A DNA stretch of 64,000 bases, from contig NC_135801.1 of NCBI RefSeq assembly GCF_964213995.1, positions 38,564,001-38,628,000 of the forward strand. Direction: 5' to 3'. The DNA comes from Mustelus asterias. Lineage: Eukaryota. The stretch's first letter is position 1, and each line of letters opens with the position of its first letter. The position numbers were made by a program, and so were the translations under genes. Shown here one piece after another: positions 1,707-53,698 of this stretch. The notes under the pieces were generated by a model. It saw only the letters and a program-made list of their open reading frames with translations. It did no database searches and was not told the DNA's origin.

Positions 1707-2404
1707 TGTGGAGATGCCGGCGTTGGACTGGGGTAAACACAAAGGTTAGGTGGATTAAAATGCCCATTAGTGTCCAGAGCCCAACATCACTGTCCCTCTT
1801 ATACCTCCCACCTCCCCGCTATCCAGACCGATTGCGGCCCCCTGCCCCCTCCCCCCCCCCCCCCCCCCCCCCACCGATCACCTGCAGAGTGGCAGCGGAC
1901 CCACACTGCCCCTGCCCCACCCACCAGAGAACGATCTGACCCACCACCCTCCTCCTCCCCCCACCAGAGGCTCTCATCTTCGGGTAAGCATTCTGCAAGG
2001 CGGCCTTCACGACAGCGCAGAGTCGCTGAGCAGAAACTGATAGCCAAGTTCCGCACACATGAGGACGGCCTAAACCGGGATGTTGGGTTTACGTCACACT
2101 ATCAGTAACCCCCACAGCTTGCCTCCTGGACTTGCTGGCTGTCCTGTCTGGAGACAATACACATTTCTTTAACCTGTGCTTAATGCTCCCTCCACTCACA
2201 TTGTCTGTATCTTTAAGACCTGGTTGGCTGTAGAGATTCGCATTCTAATCAGTGTTCTGTAACTTGATTTTGTGTCTCTGTGCCCTGTGTGAGAGCAGAT
2301 TTCCACTCCATCTGACGAAGGAGCAGCGCTCCGAAAGCTAATGGCATTTGCTACCAAATAAACCTGTTGGACTTTAACCTGGTGTTGTTAAAACTCTTGC
2401 TGTG
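1707..2404 (+). mobile_element. Penelope-like (PLE) truncated insertion with inverted terminus and captured filler
   Basis: 12-bp TSD TTCTTCCATTGA (1695-1706, 2405-2416). GIY-YIG C-terminal fragment (RRVAEQKLIAKFRTHEDGLNRD, stop at 2108), 3' region with hammerhead motif, inverted 3' terminus at 1707-1740. Confidence 0.85.
2308..2344 (+). ncRNA. Minimal type-I hammerhead ribozyme motif of the PLE
   Basis: ccat-CUGACGA-A-GGAGC(agc)GCUCC-GAAA-GC-UA-augg: catalytic core, stems I and II, and palindromic AGCU in place of stem III. Confidence 0.75.
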
Positions 2405-3557
2405 TTCTTCCATTGAGCCAATGTCTAATCCAATTTACTACCTCTCCATGTATACCTAGCGACTGAATCTCCCTGACTAACCTCCCATGCGGGAGGTTAG
2501 TCAGGAAGATGGCTTAATTTGAAAACTGAAAATGAGTAAGCAATTGGTTAACCGCCAGCATTCCACAACGAACATTTCATCCAACTGTAGATAATTGAGG
2601 TTAAAATAGGCTACCAAATCCCTGAGTTGTCGTTTTGTGATTATACCAGATGTCAAGAGACTTCTAAAGTCTGTTCAATTTCAGCGCTTCATTTCATAAT
2701 TAAAGTTTTTGTTGAAATGCCAGTTTTATATTCCAGGCTGACTTTTTTCCCCTTTTTTCCCCCCCCAAATCTGTTCCCTGTCCCTGAAATATCCTTGTTG
2801 GGATATAGTCTAAAAGGTGCCCTGAACTGACTCATCCAGATGGGCATTCCTTGAATGTGCGCTGAGACAGTGGGAACTAAATTGGATAGCCCCCAATAGC
2901 AGATATGGGAATGGTGATGCAGGATTAACCTGATGGCGATGCATGATTAACCTGTAGCTTAAACACAGGCAGCATGCCACTTCTGCTCTGCACATTAGCA
3001 TGAGTACTGCAAGCAGCCAGCACTAACCCAGTTGTTCACCGGCTGTGTATCGGGAGCCTAAAACCTTCATCACATTATATAAAGCAGCTCTGCATTGTGG
3101 CGGGGGACCGTGCTGAGTACACTTATGGACCCAATCATGATATCCCAGTTTCCATTATAGCGCTGTAGTTTTCACCAAATCTCTGACGTGCTGTACTGGA
3201 AGAAGAATCTGCGCTAAGCCAGCTTAATTTGCACAATGCAGGCTCAGACTGCAGCCATCATGCCTGCGCCTATCAGTGTTCAAAGGGGCTTGCAGAGTTC
3301 GCAGCAGTCCAGCAATCTATTCCCTCACAGACTCTCAGGATTGCTGAGGTGCTGCCCCAGTGCAGCGAGACTGTTGCCAGGGAGCACAGAACAGCTGTCC
3401 TCTCCTGGGATGACCGCTTTCATGCTCCAATCCTACCTGCTCCGCCAGTGCCCTCGGTAATGCCTTTTGGCCAGGCCAGACTGATGCTGATGACCACCAA
3501 CTCCAAAGCTCCTTCTCCACCAAGGTCATCTCTAGTCTGCTTCATTGAGAGTCAATA

Positions 3558-3775
3558 AGGGTCACAATGTCCCAAATGACCATAAGCTGCTTTCCCCTCC
3601 GAGGGAGAGGGCTGGCTGGTGATGATTTAGCCTGAGGATCATCACACCTCAGGAGAGGGGCAAGATTTAGAAGGTGGAACCTTCAAGGATAACCTCAGCT
3701 GGAATAGGAATTGAACCCACGTTGTTGGTGTTGCTCTGCATCACGAGCCAGCCGTCCAGCCAACTGAGCTAACCA
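3558..3775 (-). mobile_element. tRNA-derived SINE (family distinct from the V-SINEs)
   Basis: Minus-strand head GGTTAGCTCAGTTGGCTGG (A box) and GGTTCAATTCC (B box). Confidence 0.65.
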
Positions 3776-4691
3776 GAGAGTCAGTAACCTTCCTCCAGCC
3801 ATGCCGTGCCAATCACTCAGGTAGCATGTATAGGAGCAGTACGACAGGCAAAGACATGGAAGATGAGCACTAAGAAGCATTTTGTCTATAGAATAAGACA
3901 TTATTTTCTTCATTAATTTTGTTTGCAGTGTTTATTTATCTTTTATCTTTTAATTGTGGCCAAGAGGACGATGTATTGCTCAGTGACAGCGGAATGGTGT
4001 GCACGGGTCTGCTGGGGAAATGGGGGCTCTGGTTTCTCAGATTGCACTTGAATTGATTTATCGACAGCCTGGCAGAAGTTGGCACTTCTCCTCCTTATTC
4101 CTCTTTTCCCTTTACACCTCCAACATCACTGCCCCTCCCTCCCCCAAAACCTTCTGCCTGAGAGTCAATGGCAAGGACTGTCTCCTCCAGATGATGATGT
4201 TGTGCAGCAGACATCAGGCACCAGACCGCCAGAGATCTTCACATCTGCTCTGTTGAGTATTGCAGGACTCCTCGAGAGGAGTCCACATAGTGGAATCGTT
4301 ATTTTAACATGCCAGTGGTCTGCTCTCACGTTTCTTGTGAACAAGGCTCTCACTATATGCATGCTGTGTGTGTACGTGGGTTGTGAATTGGAGCTATATA
4401 ATCAGTGGTTAGCCCTGGTTGCCTGCTAGCCACCCACTGAGTGAGGGCATCGGCTGCTGGGTGGAGCCTCAAAATGCCATTGCTGGATTCAAAGCAGCAT
4501 TGCCAAGATCTGCCTGCTGTCCAACAGATGTTAGTTACGCCTGTGCCAACACCCTCAAAATAGGAAGTCTGTGTGATGCCTGTAGAAATATGGGCACATT
4601 CAACCAACAAGCAATGGGTGCTGCAGAGCTCAACTTTTCACCCAAGGTCTCTGGTCTAATTGCTCCCAGGAAATGTCAGTAATGCCCAACT

Positions 4692-4995
4692 GTGGTGCCA
4701 CAGTGGTTAGCATTGCTGCCTCACAGCGCCAGGGACCCGGGTTCGATTCCCAGCTTGGGTCACTGTCTGTGTAGAGTCTACACATTCTCCCCGTGTCTGC
4801 GTGGGTTTCCTCCGGGTGCACCAGGTTTCTCCCACAATCTGAAATACGTGCTGATTGGGTGCATTGGCCGCATTAAATCTTCCCTCAGTGTACCCAAACA
4901 GGCGCCGGAGTGTGGCGAGTGGGGGATTTGCGCAGTAACTTTGTTGCAGTGTTAATGTAAGCCTACTTGTGACATACATAAATAAATAAATTAAT
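4692..4995 (+). mobile_element. V-SINE (HE1-like), tail type B
   Basis: tRNA head (CAGTGGTTAGC..GGTTCGATTCC), V-domain GTGTCTGCGTGGGTTTCCTCCGGGTG, tail ending GCCTACTTGTGAC..(AATA)n. Confidence 0.9.
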
Positions 4996-6339
4996 TAAAA
5001 CATCCCCCCGGTCCAGCAATGGTCAGTTGGGAATTTCAGCTGATTTTTTTTTCCTCTCCCGATTAACCTAGGGGAGCAAAGGTCAATTTTAGCAGTATAC
5101 TGAGGTCAGTTAACTCGGGACGGATTGGGGATTGAACCTGGAACTGTCCTGTTCTGTAATACACTCCTTCCACTGCTTCAGCAAGTTGAGTCATTGAGAG
5201 AACTTTGACCTTGTTAGGACAGTATTCAATAATTTATTGAATCTCTATCCAGTTTACTTTAGCAACAGAACTGTCTGTGTGATGTGGTTATAGCAGAAAT
5301 GAGGAAGATAGTGGACTAATTGAGCAGCATGTCTTCTCAGACTGATCGGAGTTGTAGCTGGACTAAACTTATTACTGAGATGTTTTCACTTGGTGTTGCA
5401 ACAAGAGATAATGTAGCCCTAAAGACTTAGTTTATTAATATGATGTGAACATAAATGTTTTGTGTAGATTAAGAGGAAAGATATCCCATTACAGACTTAA
5501 TGAAACCCCTGCTGTACATGTACCAATTTCCATTAATCTTTTAGTCATCAAGCAGTTGCCTGGAAATTTGCCTGCAGTGTTTTGAGGAGAATTAACAGAA
5601 TTCCTATTGTTGCTTTAGTTCAGCTTTCACATCAATGCAGTCCATGTGCCAGGAAAGAAGTAACTGAGCCCAGAACGTTGGAGCTGAATCACCAAAGTTG
5701 TAACTGTTAATCACTCACTCCTTTAGTCAGAGCTAGAATTGTGGGCAGGATTCTCCAATCTTGTTTACCTCACCACCGCTACCAGCGAGAGTGATGAATT
5801 TAATGCCCAGCCTAAACTCCATTCACTGCAGTGACACCGCAGAATCCCAGCCACGGGCGAGGTCGGAGGATTCTGGTGTAAGGGACATAATGCAAGAAAG
5901 ACATTCATCAGAAAACTATTTCACAACAACATTTATCCAGCACTCTTATTATAAAAATCCCAATAATGTGTCACAGGAATGCTGTCAAATAGAAACTGGA
6001 ACCAAGCCAAAAAGGAGATATTCGAACGGTTGAATAAAACTTTATTTGAAGAGATTTTAAGGAGAAACTTGGGTAGAGCGAGAACTGTTGGTATAGGAAC
6101 AACAGGATTAGCAGGTCATAATGCCTGTTTAATGCCTCATCCAAAAGATAGCTGTGAGAATTCTAACCTGTGGATAGGAAAGCTGCCTGGTAGGGTGGCC
6201 ACAGCACCAGAGGGCCAGTCACTATTAACAGGTAATTTACCCCCTTCATTTTAGCAGCTACTCTGCAGGACTGTGGATGTTTGTAGCTGCAAGAATAGTT
6301 TCTTGGTTTGTGCTTTATATCAGGGCAACAGGATTAGGC

Positions 6340-8775: not shown

Positions 8776-8898
8776 TGATGTGGAGATGCCGGCGTTGACT
8801 AGGATGGGCACAGTAAGAAGTCTCTCAACACCAGGTTAAAGTTCAACGGGTTACTTTTGGAATCACGAGCTTTCAGAGCGCTGCTCCTTCATCAGGTG
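8776..8898 (-). mobile_element. PLE 3'-terminal fragment with hammerhead motif
   Basis: TGATGTGGAGATGCCGGCGTTG terminus; minus strand reads cac-CUGAUGA-AGGAGCAGCGCUCU-GAAA-GCUC-gug. Confidence 0.85.
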
Positions 8899-9794
8899 TT
8901 CATCCAGGAAGAGGACTTTATCCCAGCAACTTTGCTTACCTTTGCTTTGCTAATGTAATGTAAAAATCGATAGAAGAGCTGCTGGAGAGGCTGGTGGTTC
9001 TTAAAAGCGGAAAAGTCCCCTGGTTCGTGTATTCTGGGAGTGGAACTAAGTGGATTGTTCTTCAGAAGAGCCGGCACAGACTTACTAAACCAAATGGTGA
9101 TTCTATGCTGCAGAAAGGATATTAAAGAACAGAAGTTGCAGTGCAGGTTCAACTGGTATGCTGTCAGGTATGAACACGCAGGATGGGAGCAGGAATAGAC
9201 TAAAGCCCGTCACACTGGTGAGTTTGTAGACAGGGGGTTTGTAAAAACTAGTGCGTGGCCTACCTATTGCCTACCCACCAATTAATGGCCACTTAGGTAC
9301 CTCATCCTGCCTCGGCACTATATTACCCATGACAAGTTAGTAGCCCGGCAGCTTTAGCTGCGCAGGATGGTTTTGGAAAAGGAGGGGAGAGGTAAATACT
9401 CCCTCAGGGATTCCCTGTGACAATTGGAGGCCCTCCCACTAAGTTCATTCTCCCCTTTAACCCTCTCTTCCACCTCAGCCTTTCAAAATTGGCCCTCCCA
9501 TGAAACCCCCTCAACCTACCCTGCCTCACTGGGTCCTGCCAGCAGAGCCTGGCCAATACCCCGTACTTAGCCCAGATTCCATTAGCTGCTCTTTCAGGGA
9601 TTGTCTGTAGTCTCAGCTGTGGCTGCCGCTCGAACCTGGCAGTGCTGGGACTACAAAATTGCCGAGTATCCAACTGGCCGGCAGTTACCCCAATGGGGGG
9701 TAGAAATCTCAGCCAATTAAAACCCAGCTGATGTTAAATGGCTGTTGGGCAGCTGGAATTGGTGAGGACGTGTTCCCTGCCAACTGTAAAGGTG

Positions 9795-9895
9795 GGGTAA
9801 GAAGTCTCACAACACCAGGTTAAAGTCCAACAGGTTTATTTGGTAGCAAATACCACAAGCTTTCGGAGCGCTGCCCCTTCGTCAGATGGAGTGGT
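9795..9895 (-). mobile_element. PLE 3'-terminal fragment with hammerhead motif
   Basis: Minus strand reads ccau-CUGACGA-AGGGGCAGCGCUCC-GAAA-GCUU-gugg; AACTGTAAAGGTG duplicated at 9782 and 9924. Confidence 0.85.
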
Positions 9896-10547
9896 TATCT
9901 GTAAAGTCTCAGCTGTAAAGGTAAACTGTAAAGGTGACAGGGTGTGAAATCCTATCTGAATATCATTGCCTAGTTATCCTAGGTATGGGAATCTGTAAAT
10001 GTGAAGGAATACATGAACATAGAAGCAGTTTCTGTTAGAATTGAGGGGATTAAAATGTGATTTGATGAGAGTTGTATTAAATTTATGAAGCAGTGGAACT
10101 GAATAGATGGAGAGAGACTGTTTCCAGTTATTGAGAGATCTGGACATAGGGGTGTAGATGTAAAACTAGGAGAATTGGAGAAACAGTTTTTATATAGAGG
10201 GTTGAAGCTGGGGAATACATGCCTGGAGTTAGTGATTGCAGCAGAGACCATGGCAACATTTAAACAAAGGAGAGATTTAAAGAAAGGGAAATAGACATGG
10301 GGAATGGAATGAATACTGTGGATTCAGCCTAATGTTCATCTGGAGGATAAACTCCAATATGGGCTGCAAGTTCAGTTTCTGTTTTATAATTTCCATATAA
10401 CTTATTTAGCTGTTTTATAGACTATGCTTTACATTTGGTGGAGTGCATTCTTATTCACCGAAACTCTGTATAGCAAACCGGTTCCACTGAGGTGAGGAAC
10501 TGTTCAACTTAAATTGCTCCGTGAGGAGGAAAGGTGGGAGAAGGTTG

Positions 10548-13174: not shown

Positions 13175-14830
13175 GAGTCATACAGCGCAGAAAAGGCCCA
13201 TCGAGTCTCCACCGACAGTAACTACCACTAAAGGTGCGCTAATCCCATTTTCCTGCACTTATCCCATATCTTTTTATGGTGATATTTCAAGTACTCATCC
13301 AAATACTTTTTAAGGGTTGTCAGGTTTCTGGCCTCCACTACCTTCCAGGCAGTGCATCCAGATTCCCACCGCCCACCTGAGTGAATTTTCTTTGCTCAGA
13401 TCCCCTCTGAATCTTCTACCCCTAAAACTATGCCCCCTTGTGATTGGCCCCTCAACCAAGGGGAACAGCTGCTCCCTACTCATCCTGTCCATACCCCTCA
13501 TAATCTTATATACCTCAATCATGTCCCTCCGTTTGTTTTCTTTCCTTCTCTGCTCTAAAGAAAACAATAAGAAGTCTCACAACACCAGGTTAGAGTCCAA
13601 TAGGTTTATTTGATAGTACAAGCCACTAGCTTTCGGAGCGTTGCTCATTCATCAGGTAAATGGGAGTTCTGTTCACAAACAGGGCATATAAAGACACAAA
13701 CTGAATTTACAAAATAATGGTTGGAATGCGAGTCTTAAAGGTACAGACAATGTGAGTGGAGAGAGGGTTAAGCACAGGTTAAAGAGATGTGTATTGTCTC
13801 CAGCCAGGACAGTTAGTGAGATTTTGCAAGCCCAGGCAACTCGTGGGGGTTACAGATAGTGTGACATGAACCCAAGATCCCGGTTGAGGCTGTCCTCGTG
13901 TGTAGAACTTGGCTATCAGTTTCTGCTCAGTGACTCTGCGTTGTCATGTATCGCGAAGGCCACCTTGGAAAACGCTTACCCGAAGAACAGAGGCCGAATG
14001 CCCGTGACCGCTGAAGTGTTCCCCAACAGTAAGAGAACACTCTTGCCTGGTGATTGTCGAGCGGTGTTCATTCATCCGTTGTCGTAGCGTCTGTATGGTC
14101 TCCCCAATGTACCATGCCTCGGGACATCCTTTCCTGCAGCATATCCGGTACCACTCAACAATCACCAGGCAAGACTGTTCTCTTCCTGTTGGGGAGCACT
14201 TCAGCGGTCACGGGCATTCGGCCTCTGATCTTCGGGTAAGAGTTCTCCAAGGCGGCCTTCACGACAACGCAGAGTCGCTGAGCAGAGACTGATAGCCAAG
14301 TTTCGCACACATGAGAATGGCCTCAACCGGGATCTTGGGTTCATGTCTCACTATCTGTAACCCCCACGACTTGCCTGGACTTGCAAAATCTCACTAACTG
14401 TCTTGGCTGGAGACAATACACATCTCTTAAACCTGTGCTTAACCCTCTCTCCACTCACATTGTCTGTACCTTTAAGACTTGATTAGCTGTAAAGACTCGC
14501 ATTCCAACTATTATTTTGTAAATTGAATTTGTGTCTTTGTATGTTTGTGAACAGAACTCCCACTTACCTGATGAAGGAGCAGCGCTCCGAAAACTAGTGG
14601 CTTGTGCTACCAAATAAACCTATTGGACTTTAACCTGGTGTTCTGAGACTTCTTACTGTGTTTACCCCAGTCCAACGCCGGCATCTCCACATTAAAGAAA
14701 ACAGTCCAAGCCTATCCAGTCTCTCCTTAAAGCTCAAATGCTCCATCCCAGGCAACGTCCTGGTGAATCTCCTCTGTACTCCCTCTAGTGCCATCACATC
14801 CTTCCAATGTGTCTGACATAAAGTTGCCAC
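13175..14830 (-). mobile_element. CR1 LINE 3' fragment, split by a PLE
   Basis: ALEGVQRRFTR..LGLFSL (14700-14830) continues as FSLEQRR..DMIEVYKIMRG (13310-13566). Confidence 0.85.
13567..14692. mobile_element. PLE with 5' inversion: two ~0.55-kb oppositely oriented arms
   Basis: 11-bp TSD TAAAGAAAACA (13556, 14693). GIY-YIG fragment CPEAWYIGETIQTLRQRMNEHRS on minus 13944-14150, mirrored on plus 14145-14692. One hammerhead motif per arm (~13624-13660 minus, 14565-14600 plus). Confidence 0.92.
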
Positions 14831-17630: not shown

Positions 17631-17686
17631 GAGAGGAACACATGAGAGGGAGAGAGAGTTCACATTGGTCTGTGATGTATGTTGGT

Positions 17687-17889
17687 CATGATGTGTAGTT
17701 GGACTGGGGTAAGCACAGTAAGAAGTCTCACAACACCAGGTTAAAGTCCAACAAGTTTATTTGGTAGCACAAGCTTTCGGAGTGTCGCTCCTTCTTCAGG
17801 TGAGTCTCCTAAAGAAGGAGCGACATCCGAAAGCTTGTGCTACCAAATAAACCTGTTGGACTTTAATCTGGTGTTGTGAGACTTCTTGC
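17687..17889. mobile_element. Palindromic mini-PLE (two inverted 3' termini)
   Basis: 10-bp TSD GTATGTTGGT (17677, 17890); 17720-17803 is inverted at 17806-17887. Confidence 0.88.
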
Positions 17890-19583
17890 GTATGTTGGTG
17901 TACAGGAATTGGGCAGATTTAGTGCTTCTCCCCACAGTCTAAGCCTCACCCTGCCCCACCCCTTCACTGCGGGTGTGTGTCATTGGTGCATTGGATTAGA
18001 TCAGACTTTGTGTTGTTCATTGATTTATTATAACTATTTGTAAAATATCATTATGACAAATGTCATTAGCAATGAGCTGTAGAGACAAGTCAGTGAAATG
18101 GATTTGGTGTTTCTCATTGGAGTTGATGAAGTAGAAACATTGCAGCTTTCATTGAAATGCTGTTTATCCTCAAATCTTTCTATTTTGTGTTTCTTGATTT
18201 ATAAGTTTTTTATTTCAGTGAAATAAAAAGGGAACCTGTTACTTGGGGCTTGGTATGTCTGAGACATTCAGCTGGCAATTGCAGTTGGGAAAATGCTGTT
18301 TGATTAAATGTCATGGGACTTCGCATCGCTGAGATCAAATGTCACATGATCAAATCTCCAGAAATAAGTCAAACCACACACAACGACCACAGTGACATCA
18401 CCAAAACATTTCCTGCTATTGCAATGCCAGATACAGCACACTGAGTGGGCTTTAATGCCACCCCGAAGCAGGTGAGAGGTGCATTAAAATGGTGAAGGTG
18501 CCAAGTGGGGGTCCTGCCGCTGCTTTACCTCTGTCCCAATTATGTTGGGGATTTTAAGGTGCATGGACGGGTCCCCCCCGCCCCGCCCCCCCTCCCCCCT
18601 TGCCTTTGGTCTGGATCCCTGATTGATCCTGGGCCTCTGGGGAGGAGGGAGGTGCATTACCAGCAGCTACCACTGCTCTCCTGATGGCAATGCACTGCTG
18701 CTGGCTTCTGATTGACTGACAGCTCTTGGGGACCGGGGTTTCGGCTGCCCTGGGGAATGCCCACCACTGAAGTACCCGACTTGCTGTAATACAGCAGTCC
18801 TTCCTCAGAGGGGGGTGACTCTTGGTGGTTCTCCAGCAGGCCTGCCCTCCTCGTCTAGATTAAATTCAGCCCCAAAAGTGCTTTTTATTCGGCCCGTTCT
18901 AGATGCTTATACAGCTTCATCAGAAACAGGATTCACTGGGACCTAAGCAGGTTGCTATTAGCTGCCTTTTTGGGAGCTGCTTGTATACACAACTTCCAAA
19001 CACTGCAGAGGAACTGTGAAAAGTTCTAGCTGTGTCATTTCATGATTAAACAGCAGGGCTCACAAACTGATAGTTCTGTGGCAACTTAATGACCTAACTA
19101 GTTAATCCCACAAATGTTTGCAGCCTAGTCTTGGGAGTGTGAGAGCTGCAGTTATAAACATTACAGACCCAACCCCACCCGATTCTCTGTACCAGTGGCA
19201 ACATGACTGAGGATTTCTGCATATTGACTGTATTGCTTTTATAAGAAACTCCTCATCATAAACTGACAGCATCAGCTTCCAGCTCCCCCACCCTCCTTTC
19301 CTGGCCTTAGCTGCAGCACTCTGAGGAGGTGCCTGACTTCCATTCATTGTCTAAGGGACAGGACAGCCAGTGATCGACTGTCCTTCTGGCTATCAGAGGA
19401 ACATTTATATTTGATTGCAATCAAAGTGCTGAAATAAAAACAGAGAATGCTGGAAATCTGGCAGCATCTGTGGAGCGAAAAACAGAGTTAACGTTAATGC
19501 TGGATTTTACCAGCCCTGTAGGATTGGGCTGGGCGACAGGGAAAGGCAAGGAATGGAGTGTTCATCGTTTTCCTGCCACCATG

Positions 19584-21779: not shown

Positions 21780-22492
21780 GTAAAAATTTAGTTTCCATAC
21801 CAAAGCACAAAGTGCTAAACCACCATGCTAGTTGTTAAGTGTTTAGAGGTATGAGTATAGAAGTAATTTCCTCATTGTTTTAACCTGCAGACAATAGCAA
21901 TTTAATATTCAATAGCATTCTTCATGTAGTAAAGCGTCCCAAGATGCTTATCAAACAAAATCAATAGCAAGTATCGAAATGGGCGACAGGCAGCTTAACT
22001 CAAAGAAGTTGGTCTATGGAGCATCTACTAAAAGGTTGAGAGATGAGCTAATTTGGGGAGGGAGTTACAAAGAGCAGAGTCTAGGCAACTGAAGCCATGC
22101 CTGTGAATGGTGTGATGGGAGGATTGTTGGGTTGGAGGAGATTACAGAAATAGAGGGGGACAAAAACATGAAGTGATTTGAAAACCAGGGTGAGAGTTAT
22201 GAAATTAAAATCAGTGTGGGTTGGCACCCACATAAGTGATGGATAACTAGAACTTGGAGCGGGTTCGGAAATGGGTAGCAGTGTTTTAGTTGAGCTTAAG
22301 TTTACAGAGGGTTCAATGTGGATAGCTTTGTAGTAGTCTAAAAGTATCAATGGCCTGGATAAGGGTTTCAGCAGGAGATGAGCTGAGGCAGGGTTGGAAA
22401 CGGTCATTATCGTGGAGGTTGACTATCTCAGTGATAGAGAGAATACACTGGGGGCCATCAAAATTGGGAACAATCTGGTTCATTCTCACAGG

Positions 22493-22545
22493 TGTGGAGA
22501 TGCCGGCGTTGGACTGGGGTAAACACAGTAAGGTGAACACAGACG
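22493..22545 (-). mobile_element. PLE terminal stub
   Basis: TGTGGAGATGCCGGCGTTGGACTGGGGTAAACACAGTAAG with 13-bp TSD TCATTCTCACAGG (22480, 22546). Confidence 0.8.
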
Positions 22546-22580
22546 TCATTCTCACAGGGCCAGAGAGAATCATTGAATAA

Positions 22581-23640: not shown

Positions 23641-24901
23641 GTAAGGAAGAGGAACAGGATCGGGTCATTGAACCTCCTTGATTCTATTCTTCCATTCCGT
23701 GAAATCATGGCTGATCTCTAATCTCAGCCTAACATTCCCCTCTGACCCCTTTATCCCCTAAATTTTTGGACACTATCTATCTTGGTCTTGAATATACTCA
23801 ATGACTTAGCACTCACAGCGTTCTGGGGTAAAGAATGCCAAAAGTTGAGGTATAAATGTTGACCAAAACACAGGCTTATTTTGCGTCAAACTGGGAGGGC
23901 ATACGTGGATCTCGGTTTTATTTCTCATTAGAAAGCCAGAGGCTTTGACAACGCAGCACTGTCTTTGTAATGCACGGATCAACAAGTGTTGTTCGTGTCG
24001 TGTCTGCATGTAATGGATAAATGGGCACAGCAATATTAAACCGGCTGGCCAAAAGCTAAGCCAAAGAGGTGGGTTTTAAGAATAATATTGATGGAGAATG
24101 TGGTGCAGAGTTTGGTGAGGATATTCCAGGATAGTGTGCAGTTTAGGTCAAAGTCTCCAACAATAGGGTGAATGGAGGAGGCTGCACAAGAGGCCAGTGT
24201 TGGAAAAACCTATATTAGGCATGTGATTGTAAGACTAAAGGAAGTTACAGGGAGGTGGCGAGATTTGAATACAAGCTTGAGAATTTTAAATTCGATGTGT
24301 TGCGGGACTGGAAGCCAAGGTAGGTCACAAAGGAGAGGGATAATAGGTGAGCATAACCTTTCTTGTTATGAATGCGTTTCTTCACATATATACAGTGCTG
24401 TTTTATGGTGTGCGATCTGTGTGGATTATTTTTAAATAAAACCAGATTTGATCACCATGATGCTTCAGAATGTAAAACGCCACAGTAATAATGTTCTAAA
24501 TGTTTTCACAGTTATGATGGCCCTGATTTTGAAAGGGGACAGGAATAGTACACGTAATCCCCAAAGGATGCCGCACCTCAGGAATGTGGAGGCCCGGTCC
24601 TCATCTACATAAATGTTCTTAGTCCCATCTGGAACTGGCCAAATCTGGCTACCTGGCTGGTGGATGAGTGGGAATTTTGTGGCAGGAAGTTGCAGCCTGG
24701 AATCTGTGGGAATTCCCAGCTCTGTAGAGTGGGGAGGTGCAAGGATTCCTTGTGCAGCAGTGGGAGAGTGCTCCTGCTCCCAATCATGGGTTCTGACTAA
24801 TGTGGACCTCTTCCAGCCAATGGAGTCTCTTGCCCTGACTCTGCAATTATGAACCTTATTGTGCAGGATTCTGCTAGACCCCTGCTCACCAATAGAGGGA
24901 G

Positions 24902-25275
24902 TAAGAAGTTTAACAACACCAGGTTAAAGTCCAACAGGTTTATTTGGTAGCAAAAGCCACACAAGCTTTCGGAGCTCTTTCTGGAGACAATACACATCTT
25001 TTTAGCCTGCCTTGATGCTCTCTCCACTCACATTGTTTTGTTTCTTAAAGACTTGATTAGTTGTAAGTATTCGCATTCCAACCATTATTCATGTAAATTG
25101 AGTCTGTGTCTTTATATGCTCTGTTTGTGAACAGAATTCCCACTCACCTGAAGAAGGGGCTTAGAGCTCCGAAAGCGTGTGTGGCTTTTGCTACCAAATA
25201 AACCTGTTGGACTTTAACCTGGTGTAGTTAAACTTCTTACTGTGTTTACCCCAGTCCAACGCCGGCATCTCCACA
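24902..25275 (+). mobile_element. PLE with short 5' inversion
   Basis: TCACCAATAGAGGGAG duplicated (24886, 25276); inverted arm 24902-24977; hammerhead-like motif 25145-25183. Confidence 0.88.
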
Positions 25276-25659
25276 TCACCAATAGAGGGAGCCATGGCAG
25301 CCTCAAAGTCAGCAAATAAATTGCATGTTGAGAAATGGCTGGATTTGCACAACAGCTGACATTTAATTTCACTGCTACCATTCAGAGCTGGTAATTCATA
25401 CTGTTAGGGACTATTAATGATGTTCAACCTTGGAGGCCAGAAAGGGCATCTGGGGAATCTCACTGGTGATAATGAATTGGTCTAGCAATTTTTTTTAAAA
25501 AAACCTCACCATTACTTTTGAGCTGACCCAGAGTCAGGTTAGCAATAGTAGACAACAATTTCCATACAACCAATAAAGCTGTTTCAACACTCAAAGAGCA
25601 AATTCTAAAGATTTATTTGGAAAATAAACTGATGCATAATCTTTAAGGCAGACACTCTG

Positions 25660-28600
25660 TCATTTTCACCACTCTTTGGCTGAAGAAATTCCTCCTCATC
25701 TCTGTTTTAAAGGATCGTCCCTTTAGTCTGAGGTTGTGCCCTCTGGTTCTAGTTTTTCCTACTAGTGGAAACGTCCCCTCTACGTCCAGTCTATCCAGGC
25801 CTCGCAGTATCCTGTAAATTTCAATAAGATACCCCGTTATCCTTCTAAACTCCAACGAGTACAGACCCAGAGGACTCAACTGTTCCTCATACGACAAGCT
25901 CTTCATTCCAGGGATCATTCTTGTGAACCTCCTCTGGACCCTTTCCAAGGCCAGCACGTCCTTCCTTAGATATGGGGCCCAAAACTGCTCACAATATTCC
26001 AAATAGCGTCTGACCAGAGCCTTATACAGCCTCAGAAGTACATCCCTGCTCTTCGACATGAATGCTAACATTGCATTTGCCTTCCTAACTGCCGATTGAA
26101 CCTGCACATTAACCTTAAGAGAATCTTGAACAATGACTCCCAAGTCCCTTTGTGTTTCTAATTTCCTAATTATTTCCCCATTTAGAAAATAGTCTATGCC
26201 TCCATTCTGCCTTCCAAAGTGCATAACCTCACACTTTTCCACATTCCATCTGCCACTTCTTTGTCCACTCTCCTAGCCTGTCCAAGTCCTCCTGCAGCCC
26301 TCCTGCTTCCTCAATACTACCTGTCCCTCTACATATCTTTGTGTCATCTGCAAGCTTAGCAACAGTGCCTTTAGTTCCTTTTTCCAAATCGTTAATGTAT
26401 ATTGTGAAAAGTTGTGGTCCCAGCACTGACCCCTGAGGCACACCACTAGTCACCGGCTGCCATCCTGAGAAAAACCCCTTTATCTCCACTCTCTACCTCC
26501 TGCCAGTCAGCCAATCCTCTATCCATGCCCTTAACACCATGGCCTCTTAACTTATTTAACAGTTTCCTATGCGGCACCTTGTCAAAGGCCTTCTGGAAAT
26601 CTAAATAAATCACATCCACTGGTTCTCCTTTTTCTCACTTCCTTGTTACTTCCTCAAAGAACTCTAACAGATTTGTCAGACATGACCTCTCCTTGACAAA
26701 GCCGTGCTGACTCAATCCTACTTTATCATGCACTTCCAAGTACTCTGCGATCTCATTTTTAATAAGGGACTCTTAAAATCTTGCCAATGACCGAAGTCAG
26801 GCTAACCGGCCTATAACTTCCCGTCTGCTGCCTCCCTCCCTTTTTAAACAGCGGTGTTACATTAGCTACTTTCCAAAGCTCTGGGACCCTCCCTGTCTCC
26901 AGTGATTCCTGAAAGATCACCACCAATGCCTCCACAATTTCCTCAGCTATCTCTTTTAGAACCCTGGGGTGTAGTCCATCCGGTCCAGGTGATTTATTCA
27001 CCTTCAGACCTTTCAGTTTCCCCAGATCCTCCTCCTTAGTGATGGCCACTACACGCAGCTGTGCCTCCTGATTCTCCAGGAGCTCTGGCATCTCACTGGT
27101 GTCTTCCACCATGAAGATTGACGTAAAGTAACTATTCCATTCCTCTGCCATTGCTTTGTTTCCCATTATTACTTCTCCAGCCTCATTTTCCTGTGGTCCA
27201 ATGGCTATTTTTGCCTCTCTTACCTTTTTATGTATTGAAAAAAAGCTAATCCTAGCTTCTTTTGTATTATTAGCTAACTTATTTCACCACCTCCCCCCTT
27301 ATTGCTTTTTTAGTTGTCCTCTGCTTGCTTTTAAAGGCTTCCCAATCCTCTGGCTTCCCACTAATCCTTGCCGCTTTATATGCTTTTTCTTTTGCTTTTA
27401 TGCTGTCCTTGACTTCCCTCGTCAACCGTGGATGCCTCGTCCTCCCCTTAGCCTGTTTCCTCCTCCTTGGGATGAATTTCTGTTGTGCCTTCCGGATAAC
27501 CCTCCAAAACTCCTGCCATTGCTGTTCCACTGTCTTCCCTGCTAGGCTCCCTTTCCAATCAACTCTGGCCAGCTCCTCCCCCATATCTTTGTAGTTACCT
27601 TTATTTAATTGTAATAACGTTATATCTGATTCCAGCTTCCCCCTCTCAAACTGCAGGGTAAATTCTATCATCTTGTGGTCACTGCTCCCTAAGGATTCCT
27701 TCACCTTAAGTTCCCTAATCAGGTCTGCCTCATTTTTGAAGGGGTAATCAAGAAGGTAGATGAGGGCAGTGCAGTTGATGTTGTCTACATGGACTTTAAC
27801 AAGGCCTTTGACAAGGTACCGCATGGTAGATTGTTACATAAGGTTAAATCTCACGGGATCCAGGGTGAGGTATCTAAATTGATACAAAATTGGCTTCTTG
27901 ACAGAAGCCAGAGGGTGGTTGTAGAGGGTTGTTTTTCAAACTAGAGGCCTGTGACCAGCGGTGTGCCTCAGGATCCCCTGTTGTTTGTTATTTATATTAA
28001 TGATTTGGACGAGAATATAGGAGGCATGGTTAGTAAGTTTGCAGATGACACCAAGATTGGTGGCATAGTGGACAGTGAAGAAAGTTATCTTGGATTGCAA
28101 CAGCATCTTGATCAATTGGGCCAGTGGGCTGACGAATGGCAGATAGAGTTTAATTTAGACAAATGCAAGGTAGATTGGTAGATTTTGGTAGATTGAACCA
28201 GGGCAGGACTCAGTTAATGGTAGGGCGTTGGGGAGAATTACAGAACAAAGCGATCCGGGGTACATGTTCACAGCCCCTTGAAAGTGGAGGCACAGGTGGA
28301 CAGAGTGGTGAGGAAGGCATTCGGCATGCCTGGTTTCATCGATCAGAACATTGAATACAGGAGTTGGGACATCTTGTTGAAGTTGTACAAGACATTGGTA
28401 AGGCCACACTTGGAATACTGTGTGCAGTTCTGGTCACCCTATTATAGAAAGGATATTATTAAACTAGAAAGAGTGCAGAAAAGATTTACTAGGATGCTAC
28501 TGGGACTTGATGGTTTGGATTATAAGGAGAGGCTGGATAGACTGAGACTTTTTTCTCTGGAGCGTAGGAGGCTGAGGGGTGATCTTATAGAGGTCTATAA

Positions 28601-31190: not shown

Positions 31191-33290
31191 CCCATTCTGC
31201 ACGTTTATTAATGTCTTCCTGTAATTTGTTGCAAGTCTCCTTAGTATTGACTATCCCCCCAAGGTGGTGCCATCTGGAAATTTAAAAATTATGCTTTTGA
31301 TTCCAAAGTCCAAATCATTATTGTAAGTTGTGAAGGGCAGTGGTCCCAGTATTGATCTGTGAAGGGCAGCGGTCCCAGTACTGATCTATGAAGGGCAGTG
31401 GTCCCAGTACTGATCTGTGAAGGGCAGTGGTCCCAGTACTGATCTGTGAAGGGCAGCGGTCCCAGTACTGATCTATGAAGGGCAGCGGTCCCAGTACTGA
31501 TCTATGAAGGGCAGCGGTCCCAGTACTGATCTATGAAGGGCAGCGGTCCCAGTACTGATCTATGAAGGGCAGCGGTCCCAGTACTGATCTGTGAAGAGCA
31601 GCGGTCCCAGTACTGATCTGTGAAGAGCAGCGGTCCCAGTACTGATCTATGAAGGGCAGCGGTCCCAGTACTGATCTATGAAGGGCAGCGGTCCCAGTAC
31701 TGATCTATGAAGGGCAGCGGTCCCAGTACTGATCTATGAAGGGCAGCGGTCCCAGTACTGATCTGTGAAGGGCAGCGGTCCCAGTACTGATCTGTGAAGG
31801 GCAGCGGTCCCAGTACTGATCTGTGAAGGGCAGCGGTCTCAGTACTGATCTATGAAGGGCAGCGGTCCCAGTACTGATCTGTGAAGAGCAGCGGTCCCAG
31901 TACTGATCTGTGAAGAGCAGCGGTCTCAGTACTGATCTATGAAGGGCAGCGGTCCCAGTACTGATCTATGAAGGGCAGCGGTCCCAGTACTGATCTATGA
32001 AGGGCAGCGGTCCCAGTACTGATCTGTGAAGAGCAGCGGTCTCAGTACTGATCTATGAAGGGCAGCGGTCCCAGTACTGATCTATGAAGGGCAGCGGTCC
32101 CAGTACTGATCTATGAAGGGCAGCGGTCCCAGTACTGATCTATGAAGGGCAGCGGTCCCAGTACTGATCTATGAAGGGCAGCGGTCCCAGTACTGATCTA
32201 TGAAGGGCAGCGGTCCCAGTACTGATCTGTGAAGGGCAGCGGTCCCAGTACTGATCTGTGAAGGGCAGCGGTCTCAGTACTGATCTATGAAGGGCAGCGG
32301 TCCCAGTACTGATCTATGAAGGGCAGCGGTCCCAGTACTGATCTATGAAGGGCAGCGGTCCCAGTACTGATCTATGAAGGGCAGCGGTCCCAGTACTGAT
32401 CTATGAAGGGCAGCGGTCCCAGTACTGATCTATGAAGGGCAGCGGTCCCAGTACTGATCTGTGAAGGGCAGCGGTCCCAGTACTGATCTGTGAAGGGCAG
32501 CGGTCTCAGTACTGATCTGTGAAGAGCAGCGGTCCCAGTACTGATCTGTGAAGAGCAGCGGTCTCAGTACTGATCTATGAAGGGCAGCGGTCCCAGTACT
32601 GATCTGTGAAGGGCAGCGGTCTCAGTACTGATCTATGAAGAGCAGCGGTCCCAGTACTGATCTGTGAAGGGCAGCGGTCCCAGTACTGATCTGTGAAGGG
32701 CAGCGGTCCCAGTACTGATCTGTGAAGAGCAGCGGTCTCAGTACTGATCTATGAAGGGCAGCGGTCCCAGTACTGATCTGTGAAGGGCAGCGGTCTCAGT
32801 ACTGATCTATGAAGAGCAGCGGTCCCCGTACTGATCTGTGAAGGGCAGCGGTCCCAGTACTGATCTGTGAAGGGCAGCGGTCCCAGTACTGATCTGTGAA
32901 GGGCAGCGGTCCCAGTACTGATCTGTGAAGAGCAGCGGTCTCAGTACTGATCTATGAAGGGCAGCGGTCCCAGTACTGATCTGTGAAGAGCAGCGGTCCC
33001 AGTACTGATCTTTGTGGAACATCGTTTTCTACCTACTGTTGCTCTGAATAAATACACTTGCTCACCTTTTCAGTCTTGGAGCCAGGTAACCACTTCTGTC
33101 ACTGCTCTCCTGGCTCCACATTATGGCACTTTTCATAATGACCATCTGAACCCATTCATTAGTCTGTTGTGGAGCACCTCATTGCAGGTCTTTTGAAAAT
33201 CCAGGTGCACCTTCTGCATTACAATTTCTGCTGTCACCTCCTCAGAAATTCACGAAGATTGTCCAAAGATTTTTCCTTTGAAATTCATGC
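31190..33290 (-). mobile_element. Old CR1 RT fragment hosting the minisatellite
   Basis: DVPQRSVLGPLLF at 33025-32985 continues after the array as FTTYNNDLDFGIKSIIFKFPDGTTLGG (31330-31250). Confidence 0.8.
31330..33011. repeat. Minisatellite, 29-bp unit, about 58 copies
   Basis: Unit RTGAAGRGCAGCGGTCYCAGTACTGATCT; span 1682 bp = 58 x 29. Confidence 0.97.
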
Positions 33291-36443: not shown

Positions 36444-36503
36444 TGTGGGGGGGGGGTAGAGTTTTAACTTCTTAATGTGCTGGCAGGTAGGATGGGGGGG
36501 CCA

Positions 36504-36574
36504 TTACAGAGAAACCCCAACTTCCGGGTTTGCTGCTAGTAGTAGCAAACCCGGAAGTTGGGGTTTCTCTGTAA
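36504..36574. repeat. Perfect 31-bp inverted repeat with 9-nt loop
   Basis: TTACAGAGAAACCCCAACTTCCGGGTTTGCT followed by its exact reverse complement. Confidence 0.95.
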
Positions 36575-37226
36575 CGGTGTGGAGTTTTAACTGTACACAT
36601 GGGGGTAGCATGACAGACAGGTTCCCTGCCTGATAGTCAACCTGATTGAGACTGTTGGGCTGAAAACACTGGGGGGGAAAAAAGAACTGCAGGCCTGGTG
36701 TGGGGAAGTGGACCGGGGTAAGGGTTGTGGTTGATCTAGATCTTTTGGAGGAGTCGGGCAAAGAGGAGGTGGATGGAGGAAGAATATGTGGGGTGTCCTA
36801 TTGCAGGGATTTAGCAAGGTAGATGTGCTGGATTCAACAGTAGTTCTCCTCTCTGCACTTGTACCTCTTCAGGTAGTGGGGTGGGCGACTCCACATTGGG
36901 GGAAATAAACCATGCTCCAGCACTTGAACTGGTCATGGAGAGAACATATGTTATCCAGCCAATCGGTGGTTAAAATCTGTCCAATACTCCACACATTTTC
37001 TGAGAAGAAAAGAGTGAAAACAAAAAGTGGCTTTACTTGGTGAGAAATAACAATCCATATATATTAAAGAATTTCTGGTATTCTGAGGTGCTCAGGAATG
37101 TCTGTTGTATAAAAATATTTGCTTCAAATTTCAAGTTGTAAAACCCGGTACACATTTCTGTAAATAAGACGACATTGAATAATCTTTGGGAATGATTTCA
37201 TCCTTATAATATGTGTTCTTTTTCAG

Positions 37227-46608: not shown

Positions 46609-46611
46609 AAT

Positions 46612-49240: not shown

Positions 49241-49466
49241 GTATGACAATGAGATGGAAGATTTGTGATAAAGAGGAAAACTGGTCAGTGATCTATGTCT
49301 CAGAACTTGCAGCTGCTGATATGAAGGATAGATCAGTAGTTAAATGCCAGCTTAAAAATAAATAATGCAAAAAGGTATCCTCATTGGAATATTAAAGCCA
49401 ACTCGTGTTGTTAGCGGGAGTTTCATTCCTGCGAAATAGCGAAGGGTGAAATTACAAACAATGAAC

Positions 49467-50005
49467 TTGATTTGATTTATTATTGTCACATGTATTAACA
49501 TACAGTGAAAAGTATTGTTTCTTGCGTGCTATACAGACAAAGCATACTGTACATAGGGAAGGAAAGGAGAGCGTGCAGAATGTAATGTTACAGTCATAGA
49601 TAGGGTGTAGAGAAAGATCAACTTAATGCAAGATAGGTCCATTCAAAAGTCTGATCGCAGCAGGGAAGAAGCTGTTCTTGAGTCGTTTGGTACATGACCT
49701 CAGACTTTTGTATCTTTTTCCAGAAGGAAGAAGGTGGAAGAGAGTATGTCTGGGGTGTGTGGGATCCTAATTATGCTGGCTGCTTTGCCGAGGCAGCGGG
49801 AAGTGTAGACAGAGTCAATGGATGGGAGGCTGGTTTGCATGATGGACTGGGCTTCATTCATGACTCTGTATTGGTAAACACAGTAAGACGTCTAACAACA
49901 GGTACTGGTATACAGTGAAAAGTATTATTCCTTGCAAGCTATACAGACAAAGCATATCATTCATAAAGTACATAGGGGAGAAAGAAAGGAGAAGGTGCAG
50001 AATGA
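49467..50005 (-). mobile_element. Rex1-like 3' fragment, followed by a PLE stub (49873-49900) and a second copy of the tail
   Basis: TTGATTTGATTTATTATTGTCACATG mirrors the 12160-12185 tail; 49905-50005 repeats 49500-49582. Confidence 0.82.
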
Positions 50006-50363
50006 GGTGAATTTCAGCGTGTGCAGAGATGGGTGTATGCACAGTAAGTACTTTCTACATGAAAAAGATGTGGGAAAAGTGAGAGTTTAATATAACAATT
50101 TAATTTGTGGATGAGTGAAGTTTTGGCGCTGCAAACCGCGATTTAGTGTATGTACACATGCATGTGGAAGATGCACTGTATTCGAAAGATACTTGAGTGG
50201 AGATGTAATTGATGTCTGTAAAATTGTAATTTAAAGAATCCTGAATTATGGTTGATCCCAGAAGATAGGAGTGGATTCAATATCGGAGGTTTTAGGATGT
50301 TTGTGATATTCAAGAAAGAGACAAATGGCAGGTCAGGAGGAGACGAGTGTTTCATGTACAGGA

Positions 50364-50610
50364 TGATGCACTATCAATCAAGCAAAGACTAGTTTGTATG
50401 CTAGAACAAATAGGCTTTTATTAGCAAAAGACTTGGAGCACACCCATGCTGATGAACTGGTCCAGAGACTGAGGCAGGGGGGTGGAGAGCAGTCACCTTT
50501 ATATCTGGACCGGGGGGGAGGAGTCCCAGGCCGGGCTGGCAGGGGCATGCCCAGGCATGTCACACACACACACACACACACAGGCAATAAGCTAACAGTG
50601 GTTTACCACA
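50364..50610 (-). mobile_element. Short solo LTR (Gypsy/BEL-like), antisense
   Basis: Minus strand TGTGGTAAACC...GTGCATCA, 5-bp TSD CAGGA (50359, 50611), TATAAAGG and AATAAAA on minus, internal (TG)n. Confidence 0.85.
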
Positions 50611-51258
50611 CAGGATAAATTTGAAATGAAAACAGCTACATAATTACAGTGGCTATTCCTTAAAAGCATATAGTTGGCTATGAAGTACCTTAGGACATCC
50701 TAAGAATGTGGAAGGTGCTAAATAATTTTAAGTTTGTTCTTGTTTCCTGATGTCTTGAGCACAATAATGAAACAGTCAGGCTTCAATTGACCCTCATACA
50801 TTGATGGCGGTAAAAATGGAGGGCAAAATTGCTGGAACAGGATAAAAATAATGTGTGAAGAATGTGGAGGGACAATAGTGTGATAAGAACTTCAATCAAC
50901 TTCATATAACGTGGGTGTATTTAAATGAAAACGGCCTCGGCGTTAGTCAATGTGGTAGAAGATTGCTTTCTCTGACCCAGTGTTACAGACGTCACTAGGG
51001 ATAACACTTACCGTGACCATATCCTTGCACAGAATCAGGACAGCATTCATATTTTAAGTAGTATCGCAACCTTTAAATGCTATGAATCACATGATTCAAT
51101 TTCAGATAATCAGACAATTGCCACAGCAAAGTCATAAGGCCAAACCGTGACTTTGAAAATGCAAACTACAAAGGAATGAGGGGAATTAAGAGAGAGTGAT
51201 TGACCTGTTCTACTGTCATCTTAGTTGAGAAATGGAACGAGTTTAAACTATAATGTCA

Positions 51259-51600
51259 GGGCGGCACGGTAGCACAGTGGTTAGCACTGCTGCTTCACAG
51301 CTCCAGGGTCCCGGGTTCGATTCCCGGCTCGGGTCACTGTCTGTGTGGAGTTTGCACATTCTCCTCGTGTCTGCGTTGGGTTTCCTCCGGGTGCTCCGGT
51401 TTCCTCCCACAGTCCAAAGATGTGCGGGTTAGGTTGATTGGCCAGGTTAAAAATTGCCCCTTAGAGTTCTGAGATGCGTAGGTTAGAGGGATTAGCGGGT
51501 AAATATGTGGGGGTAGGGCCTGGGTGGGATTGTGGTCGGTGCAGACTCGATGGGCCGAATGGCCTCCTTCTGCACTGTAGGGTTTCTATGGTTTCTATGT
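51259..51600 (+). mobile_element. V-SINE, tail type A, young
   Basis: Full head, V-domain and tail; CpGs retained. Confidence 0.93.
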
Positions 51601-52430
51601 TGAATACTGTTTGTGAAGTTTAGTCGAACAAGGCTCAGAATGATGAACTGGACAACTAAAATAGAAATTATAAAAAATATACAAAGCCGTAGGGGAGAGG
51701 AGATGGTGAACTTTAGGAGGAATATTTAAACATTAAACTGAAAAGTGCCAGAAGGCAACAGAATTTGAATAAAGGCAAGTGCTGCTAGAAAGTATTCTGC
51801 ATTAAATATGTAGAATAATTTCTTAAATAGGGTAATTGGCATAGACTTTGAGAATACCCCAAGTCCACTTTTATGTTACAGTGGGCATTTTGCAACTAAC
51901 CTAGGTGCCAATATCTTTCTCCAGACACTCATTCACTTTCCTGAGTTTCTGTGCATTTCCCAAAGCCTCCGAGAAGATTATCTGCCTGCATTGCAGCTCC
52001 AAAAGATTAAAGGCATTTAGGGTTGCATTGACGGATCACCCGTTTTGCTATTTGTGATGTCTGTCACATTTTTCCATTTAAAATGTTATAGAAGAAACTG
52101 CTTTGAGGTCTTGAGATGGATCTTTCTGACAAAAGGTTTGTATGGAAAACTTCCATGTGGTCTGAGTGGAAATTTATCCTGTACAGTTCTCTGTTAGCTT
52201 GCTTTATTTAAGCTTGTCATCAAGCCATTAATGCTCTCATTCCTATTTACAAACTATTACGAGTAAGTGCTATAAATAACAAGATCTCTGGTATTGTCAA
52301 GGGGAGAGTTTATCCTCCATCAGGACTGGATGTAAGTCTAATGTTTTCTGAACGATTCAGCTTAATATCACAGAGATAAGCATATGTTTACGCTGCGGGG
52401 TTGTATTAACAAATTCCTTTTCTTCTGCAG

Positions 52431-52493
52431 AGTGATACTTCGGGTGATTACAGAAATGCCCTGCTCAGCATGTGCGGTGGTGAAGATAAATAA
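52431..52493 (+). CDS. ANXA5: Annexin A5-like last coding exon
   Basis: ttcttctgcAG|; SDTSGDYRNALLSMCGGEDK* (TAA 52491-52493). Confidence 0.95.
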   Translation, partial: SDTSGDYRNALLSMCGGEDK

Positions 52494-53327
52494 TGCTCCT
52501 TGTGAAGAAATCCATTTTACATACAGCTCTGAAGCTTTGATCTGTATGATTACTTAAACCAGATATCATTGTAACGCAGATTTTTTAATGAACTAAAGCA
52601 TGTGAAAGGATTATTTTTTTTAACACTTTTAAAGGAGGACTGTGATAAGTCCTCATTCTCTGTTTGTGATATATGTCATTAACAATTGACCACCACAGTA
52701 CAAGCATCGTCTTATGTGACGGAAGGCTGCCACAGAAGTTAACAATTCCCCTCTCGTCTCAATGGCATCCATTCTGTTGAGTTTAATAGCTTTGCAACTT
52801 AAACAAGCTTGTTTTTTCCATAATCCAGTTAATGCAGCTGCCAGCTTTAAAGCTTTTTTTAATTGTCATAACAGTCTGTCTGAAAATTTATTGGATAATT
52901 ATAAACTTGTGAAAATATTCTGAGATGAAAAATTGGACCAATATGAGATAACTAAAGCCAAACATTTGTCTTTGTCTTACTCCTGAGGGAGCCAAGAATT
53001 TTACTGATCCATCAAATGAAGGAGACTAACTAAAATCAGTATTAAAAATGTTCTCAGAAATGATTTTCTTAGTCCTGATTGCCCTTTGTTATGACTTCTG
53101 TTGCTTTGCTGCCCTTACCTTGAGTACCAAGATATTTGAGAATATTTCTATTAGGAGATTGAGATCACTACATAGATGGATATTTAGAAGACTGTGGGAA
53201 GTTGCTCTGTCTCTGTAAAATCGTCAGTAACAAGACCAATCTTAGCCATATCTGGGAGCATGAGAGCAAATTGTTGGCGTTACAGTTTCTCTACAAGTTA
53301 CATTTGAAAGCTGTTTACCCTTTAGAC

Positions 53328-53481
53328 CAGCGGTCTCCAAACTTTTCAGTACGAGGGCCACATCATATATTTTACACATTTTCGTGGGCAAAGAAAAAGA
53401 TTCGTTTTATAAATGATTGAATATTTCAAGTTGCTGCGGGCCGGATGTGACCCGCTGCGGGCCGTAGTTTGGAGACCCTTG
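53328..53481. mobile_element. hAT-Charlie-type MITE (154 bp) in the probable 3'UTR
   Basis: TIRs CAGCGGTCTCCAAACT / AGTTTGGAGACCCTTG; 8-bp TSD CTTTAGAC (53320, 53482). Confidence 0.92.
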
Positions 53482-53598
53482 CTTTAGACCATGCACTATC
53501 CCATCCACTTTGAAGTAACATGAGTTCTTGCCACAAAGATCTCTTAGTTCTTTAGCTGACATAAAAATAATACCAATAATATGCCAGCTTCCATTCTG

Positions 53599-53698
53599 TA
53601 GTAGACTGGGGTGGGCACAGTAAGAAGTCTCGCAACACCAGGTTAAAGTCCAACAGGTTTATTTGGAATCATGAGCTTTTAGAGCACTGCTTCTTCCT
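53599..53698 (-). mobile_element. PLE terminal fragment in the probable 3'UTR (degenerate hammerhead)
   Basis: 14-bp TSD CAGCTTCCATTCTG (53585, 53699). Confidence 0.85.

Follow-up and report, generated by a model that had tools for sequence, protein, structure and literature searches.

Architecture of the Insertions

The window analyzed here is a stretch of 64,000 nucleotides from the genome of the shark Mustelus asterias (contig NC_135801.1, positions 38,564,001 to 38,628,000). It contains eight insertions of a Penelope-like element (PLE) that have one 3′ module in common. Very probably, these inserts are 5′-truncated copies of an autonomous Neptune-type PLE whose pseudo-long terminal repeat (pLTR) carries a minimal type-I hammerhead ribozyme; this ribozyme likely cleaves only as a pair, at a predicted site that precedes the start codon by 99 nt.

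By a combined scan with a regular expression and a hidden Markov model (HMM), ten copies of the module were found in the window, corresponding to the eight insertions and one remnant at 49873 (Table 1). All eight sites of the initial annotation, which had been made from the sequence alone, were recovered, and the remnant adds to its list. Target-site duplications (TSDs) of 10 to 16 bp, ascribed therein to most insertions, are exact at seven of the eight; a TSD of at least 8 bp was looked for at 8776 and none was found. Three insertions (13567, 17687, and 24902) consist of two module arms arranged head to head. At 1707, an inverted tail is combined with a body arm on the plus strand, and at 22493 the tail is the only recognizable part of the module. 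Broken sequence of the C terminus of a GIY-YIG endonuclease occurs in the body arm at 1707 and in both arms at 13567. The TSD of the insertion at 9795 is accompanied by a partial extra copy. Insertion 1 holds, inside its TSD, a filler that separates the tail arm from the body arm. This filler matches a common C-rich repeat and was possibly captured through template switching.

Table 1 Insertions of the PLE module in the window, their parts, and the hammerhead motif of insertion 1 (strand "." denotes composite insertions)
Feature	Position	Strand	Description	TSD
Insertion 1	1707..2404	.	Inverted tail, filler, and + arm	1695-1706 / 2405-2416
Insertion 1, inverted tail	1707-1741	-		
Insertion 1, filler	1742-1970		229 bp, non-PLE	
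Insertion 1, arm	1971-2404	+	GIY-YIG C terminus and pLTR, no tail	
Canonical minimal hammerhead	2308..2344	+	Stem I 4 bp, CUGACGA-A, stem II 5 bp, GAAA-GC-UA; predicted cut after A2340	
Insertion 2	8776..8900	-	Single tailed arm, older subfamily; motif 8895-8867	None found
Insertion 3	9795..9923	-	Single arm without tail; canonical motif 9885-9857	9782-9794 / 9924-9936
Insertion 4	13567..14692	.	Head-to-head pair	13556-13566 / 14693-14703
Insertion 4, arm	13567-14150	-	No tail; motif at 13655 without G10.1	
Insertion 4, arm	14150-14692	+	Tailed; motif at 14568 with broken palindrome	
Insertion 5	17687..17889	.	Head-to-head pair; - arm tailed, motif 17799-17771; + arm without tail and without CUGA	17677-17686 / 17890-17899
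Insertion 6	22493..22545	-	Tail and 13 other bases, no hammerhead	22480-22492 / 22546-22558
Insertion 7	24902..25275	.	Two arms, young subfamily	24886-24901 / 25276-25291
Insertion 7, arm	24902-24978	-	Without tail	
Insertion 7, arm	24977-25275	+	Tailed; motif at 25148 with U16.1 replaced by G	
3′-module remnant	49873..49901	-	28 bp	
Insertion 8	53599..53698	-	Single arm, degenerate tail, starts inside core	53585-53598 / 53699-53712

The Hammerhead Motif

The arrangement CUGANGA-A-stem II-GAAA is present in seven motifs of the window, which are spread over six insertions, with two motifs at 13567. The initial annotation had credited seven motifs with the full pattern; this holds for CUGANGA and GAAA, but the subsequent GC-U-H is kept in five of the seven, since the motif at 14568 reads AACU and that at 25148 has a G at position 16.1. 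Three motifs (2312, 9885, and 17799) are fully canonical, whereas G10.1 is missing at 13655 and stem II is closed by a G·U pair at 8895. Stem II comprises 5 to 6 bp and is capped by 3-nt loops, except for CGACA. Herein, the previously described variation of the stem II loop needs to be corrected, as the other two quoted loops (CAGCG and CUUAGAG) include paired bases. The variation of N7 and H17 among copies was corroborated; the proposed covariation of stem I amounts, within the window, to a compensatory change at just one pair. The classification as a minimal type-I hammerhead with stem III reduced to a palindrome agrees with the subfamily consensuses, in which the GC is invariant.

Genome-wide, at least 111,155 motifs with an exact core were counted by exact patterns covering the full core and the first three positions of stem I. 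The first stem I pair is C-G in 68,923 cases, U-A in 36,047, U·G in 2,793, and C·A in 3,392, and most of the listed C·A cases fit CpG decay. Stem II haplotypes that occur in at least two loci pair fully in 16 of 17 cases. In an alignment of 76 distinct copies, 95.5% of the stem cells are paired and four of nine pairs are changed on both sides; these copies were chosen for an intact core, so that the invariance of the core in this set is by construction. Conservation was assessed on 82 unselected arms that were clustered without the core columns. Among the resulting five to eight subfamily consensuses, which bear out the earlier claim of several subfamilies, 0 of the 14 core, palindrome, and extra-A positions vary, whereas about two thirds of the 55 remaining positions nearby do (Fisher p 9e-7 to 4e-5 at three thresholds). 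The core is thus more conserved than its flanks, as had been proposed. Variation affects N7 and H17 as well as the two stems and the flank upstream, and H17 is almost never G.

Several observations weigh against a functional ribozyme. An Rfam scan of the window returned no hammerhead family at E ≤ 5. The monomer fold is no better than that of shuffled sequences (z -0.84), and in the fold predicted for the young-subfamily monomer, the palindrome and the 3′ arm of stem I are taken up by a rival hairpin. The covariation stems from few events, namely one stem I pair and three cells each for three stem II pairs, and the number of two-sided pairs was reached by 91 of 500 shuffles. Moreover, the segment downstream of the motif approaches the core in its fixation, with 4-8 variable positions among 49; hence, conservation alone is no proof of catalysis. 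These nearly fixed 49 nt probably form an element bound by the reverse transcriptase (RT).

Near the tail, an invariant stem of 8 to 9 bp is formed by the tail and a conserved upstream segment in the window (25205-25263) and in the leader of locus L153, and it encloses the first RT start site. This stem does not stand out from shuffled sequences and shows no covariation. The hairpin spanning the two start sites gave z values of -0.09 and -1.46 relative to shuffles, neither of them significant.

The Parent Element

The own genome (3.68 Gb) was searched with the C-terminal and then with the N-terminal piece of the element. The open reading frame (ORF) begins at an ATG directly after the tail, and many of the 150 scored matches lie in open frames of about 913 codons. 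Frames of 892 to 893 aa are present in 18 of the 20 loci fetched, which were picked from long open frames and called under our own filter. Three of the fetched loci hold tandems with a period of 3,097 bp. The full-length RT/GIY-YIG partner envisaged at the outset is thereby found, and the module is the pLTR of this element, in line with the Penelope origin first suggested.

Sixteen frames of 893 aa are at least 99.6% identical to each other. The protein matches RVT_1 (E=4e-10) and contains the motifs DKG and YIDD. Its match to the GIY-YIG profile (E=0.0014) is below the cut-off of that profile; the YLI..YIG motif is present, and homologues carry PF01541. A linker of the form C-x4-C-x2-C precedes the endonuclease at residues 754-762. 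A CX2-5CxxC linker is a mark of the Neptune and Nematis clades (PMC8557442, PMC3846280), and by this motif, rather than by an RT tree, the parent would be a Neptune-type PLE. The closest proteins are from sharks (81-94% identical), followed by turtle (42-45%); a PDB sequence search with the ORF gave 0 matches. Judged by its coding sequence, the family is autonomous, and the near identity of the frames, together with three insertions whose two arms are 100% identical, points to recent activity.

The module HMM yielded 115 matches in 864 kb and 0 on reversed decoy DNA. In random stretches, 146 module arms were counted in 1.2 Mb, which extrapolates to about 450,000 arms, and unit matches cover 3.9% of the sampled DNA. 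Exact tail-plus-ATG ends number 23,849 genome-wide. The original estimate of one copy per 8 kb is accurate for module arms; insertions reach roughly half this density, since two arms are present in many of them.

The leader at L153:5040-5452 contains an acceptor-like pyrimidine tract terminating in CAG some 23 nt ahead of the ATG, with donor-like GTAA sites upstream. A putative intron with these borders would remove the hammerhead. No GT..AG joint was found among the 15 joints listed of 93 in contigs covering the element from four runs presumed to be RNA.

Proposed Insertion by Two Primers and Two Start Sites

In an unbiased sample of 1.46 Mb, 80 of the 3′ ends are tailed and 80 are tail-less, and the ends fall at two sites about 37 nt apart. 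Their combination within single insertions follows a strict pattern: all 41 TSD-flanked two-arm insertions are head to head with exactly one tailed end (p=5e-13). In the set that includes targeted loci, 67 of 70 pairs obey this one-tail rule; two of the three exceptions are, on our reading, mis-calls or nested pairs, and the one at L171 is truly two-tailed. TSD lengths peak at 12-13 bp. The overlap between template and TSD averages 2.2 nt, compared with 0.38 in the control.

The one-tail pattern, the TSDs, and the overlap fit a mechanism with a pair of nicks, each providing a primer, and two start sites, as described in vitro for an element of the anole. The endonuclease would nick both strands about 12 nt apart, and each 3′-OH would pair with the RNA over about 2 nt, one per start site, such that each end would always use a different start site. 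Two cDNAs would then grow toward the 5′ end of the RNA, usually stop early, and be joined head to head.

The two arms of an insertion mostly match in subfamily. Three or more subfamily differences were found in 8 of 29 arm pairs, several of which look like alignment noise at the junction, as opposed to 89% of random cross pairs. In three cases, one TSD encloses arms of different subfamilies (L171:1397-1693, L149:4105-4727, and L114:4499-6905), which may reflect two templates or later conversion. A fourth candidate, L068, was rejected as two separate insertions. The notion that RNAs of two distant subfamilies are routinely used together was likewise rejected, with 1 mixed close pair against 2,796 same-type matches (about 1,400 loci), a test weakened insofar as the two subfamilies may differ in age.

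Predicted Cleavage and the Nature of the Template

Dimer cleavage of the shark motif is likely by analogy with its published relatives. The ribozyme would pair two pLTR copies through AGCU, probably helped by the protein of the element, and the paired ribozymes would cut tandem transcripts into unit lengths. The predicted cut site lies upstream of both start sites, so that a cut RNA primed there would leave nothing but stubs beginning at the cut. Of 142 arms, 102 retain CUGANGA upstream of this site. Because most arms are continuous across the cut site, the usual template is likely an uncut (or re-ligated) tandem read-through RNA.

Stubs were sought among short fold-backs. For the main group (1,510 fold-backs), the first 50 loci were scored by eye. 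Of their 100 arms, 17 have their start precisely at the cut and about 13 one base short of it; one base beyond the cut there are 3 starts, two bases beyond 6, and on each of the three following positions 1-3. About a fifth of the arms in this count belong to other subfamilies. In the U-A group, also scored by eye, the start lies no more than one base from the cut in about 39 of 100 arms, compared with about 8 at the next two positions. Other evidence points the opposite way. Fifteen loci scored by script showed no peak at the cut site (2/30), and in the random sample 3 of 142 arms start within 1 nt of it, which is about a flat rate. The footprint at the cut site is therefore suggestive; it is confined to a small class and not separable from stalling at the fold. 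Published metazoan minimal hammerheads cleave weakly even as dimers (PMC4209133), and eight of nine Xenopus dimers did not cleave.

A more comprehensive model brings these observations together and is put forward tentatively, at somewhat less than even confidence. An asymmetric dimeric ribonucleoprotein would prime both nicked strands via microhomology, always one on each side of the tail, and could use two different RNAs (as in L114, L149, and L171), while stubs at the scissile bond would record cleavage by the hammerhead in the germ line. About half a million arms would then constitute a fossil record of how Penelope elements insert.

Two other accounts of the motif need to be considered. 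According to the rolling-circle model of PLEs, the main template would be a full-length RNA of 3.1 kb that is cut and re-ligated into a circle, as proposed in PMC4209133. The exact 3,097-bp tandems and the many copies that cross the cut site agree with such a circle; however, uncut read-through RNA accounts for the same data, a ligated junction and a tandem look alike in DNA, and for the anole element in vitro the dominant substrate was unprocessed RNA (PMC11167929). We regard the circle as an unlikely main template and prefer read-through RNA. Less probable again is a structural role without cutting, in which the retained motif would bind protein or pause the RT and any excess of ends nearby would result from RT stalling or from fold-back at the AAGCUU palindrome. 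Indeed, insertion in vitro did not require the hammerhead and RNA sequencing of the anole gave no RNA ends at the cut (PMC11167929), and 3 perfect AAGCTT-centred junctions occur among the 50 loci. Yet, conservation follows the catalytic core exactly and leaves N7 and H17 free, and by eye the ends pile up at the scissile bond in both listed subfamilies. A ribozyme that cuts as a dimer remains the favored reading of the motif.

The Short Copies

The initial annotation had regarded many copies as non-autonomous units of 50 to 400 bp in a possibly retrozyme-like system. This view finds no support, as arm lengths form a continuum from 23 to 2,139 nt, 45 of 169 arms reach the ORF, and intact autonomous copies are common; neither short arrays nor a fixed unit length was found in the sample. 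The copies are randomly 5′-truncated rather than dedicated non-autonomous units. The median arm length by BLAST is 137 nt, an underestimate for older subfamilies. A pile of arm ends at 84 nt was rejected as a size class, being the BLAST drop-off at a subfamily deletion. Genome-wide junction lists place the breakpoints at many positions. A same-strand neighbor within 1 kb was present for 12 of 175 hits, and the single run of three consists of separate insertions where inspected. No short array of equal period was found in the window or among the 175 module hits (1.46 Mb, 0.04% of the genome).

That short units replicate as self-cleaved circular RNAs mobilized in trans is very improbable: most arms are short, and a preprint reports tandem retrozymes related to pLTRs, also from the sole chondrichthyan it sampled (bioRxiv 10.64898/2026.07.22.740005), but the breakpoints are scattered, older subfamilies too have copies reaching into the ORF, inverted arms would give no sense dimer on one RNA, and the 175 hits hold no array, although rare arrays may exist elsewhere, given the size of the sample.

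Neighboring Features of the Window

Open frames at 712-1706 and 25646-26272 (-) presumably represent RT-like sequence of the long interspersed nuclear element type; the former is interrupted by insertion 1. A minisatellite with 58 copies of 29 bp extends over 31331-33011. Its unit has a 16-nt stretch that differs from the stem II region of the hammerhead by one gap and one mismatch, with no catalytic core. No second array of it was found in 1.46 Mb, and the likeness may be due to chance. At 36501-36577, a near-perfect 77-nt hairpin matches Rfam mir-934 with 38 bits against a cut-off of 80; this match reflects structure only.

Comparison With Known Systems

The shark family is young, has near-identical intact ORFs, and carries upwards of 100,000 exact-core motifs. 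Its copies form a large sample on which two open questions could be addressed, namely by what route PLEs come to insert in inverted, one-tailed form and whether their weak hammerheads are cut in cells. Literature searches, with most subscription journals outside their reach, returned no such analysis, neither for Penelope together with twin priming, where papers were judged by title or the beginning of the abstract, nor for hammerhead cleavage sites in truncated copies.

Non-LTR retrozymes (PMC7229834; bioRxiv 10.64898/2026.07.22.740005) resemble the shark family in their type-I hammerhead, the link to the pLTR of PLEs, and high copy number. However, retrozymes are organized as tandem arrays whose units, 150-450 bp in length, have canonical motifs and lack an ORF; nothing of the kind was found in the shark sample.

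Much closer are the minimal hammerheads that Cervera and De la Pena (2014, PMC4209133) described in the pLTRs of metazoan PLEs, and the shark motif fits the consensus printed there. Both share the CUGANGAH core, an extra base before stem II, G10.1-C11.1, GAAA, NUH, a short stem I, stem II, a palindrome at 15.2-16.2 that takes the place of a stable stem III, and the location in the pLTR. As in the shark, the published motifs fall into heterogeneous families with covariation, and most are solitary copies derived from truncated PLEs. In Fig. S3 therein, the row of a turtle (Chrysemys) shows the same AGCU palindrome and similar flanks. The exact-core motifs of the shark exceed the number given for Xenopus tropicalis (about 9,000). 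The terms "Shark" and "Callorhinchus" are absent from supplementary file 2 of that paper by text search.

As to the host element, endonuclease-containing PLEs of the Neptune/Nematis type (PMC8557442, PMC3846280) share with the shark family a single ORF with RT and GIY-YIG domains, the cysteine linker, and partial tandems, here of the pLTR, as well as an inverted 5′-truncated copy, TSDs, and a tail, which is 30-40 bp long and often one-ended. In the shark, the one-tail pattern could be counted as a strict rule and is accompanied by primer microhomology.

The mechanism compares best with the anole Poseidon element PAc (Frangieh et al. 2024, PMC11167929), for which both strands are cut and extended, two RT start sites bound the tail, and the hammerhead lies upstream of these sites. 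In PAc, however, the cut and the start sites are inside the ORF, whereas both are in the 5′ leader in the shark, and priming is described there as non-homologous, in contrast to the microhomology of about 2 nt in the shark. The shark Neptune-type PLE is a new member of a published class of motif and host, and its mechanistic record is partly anticipated in print.

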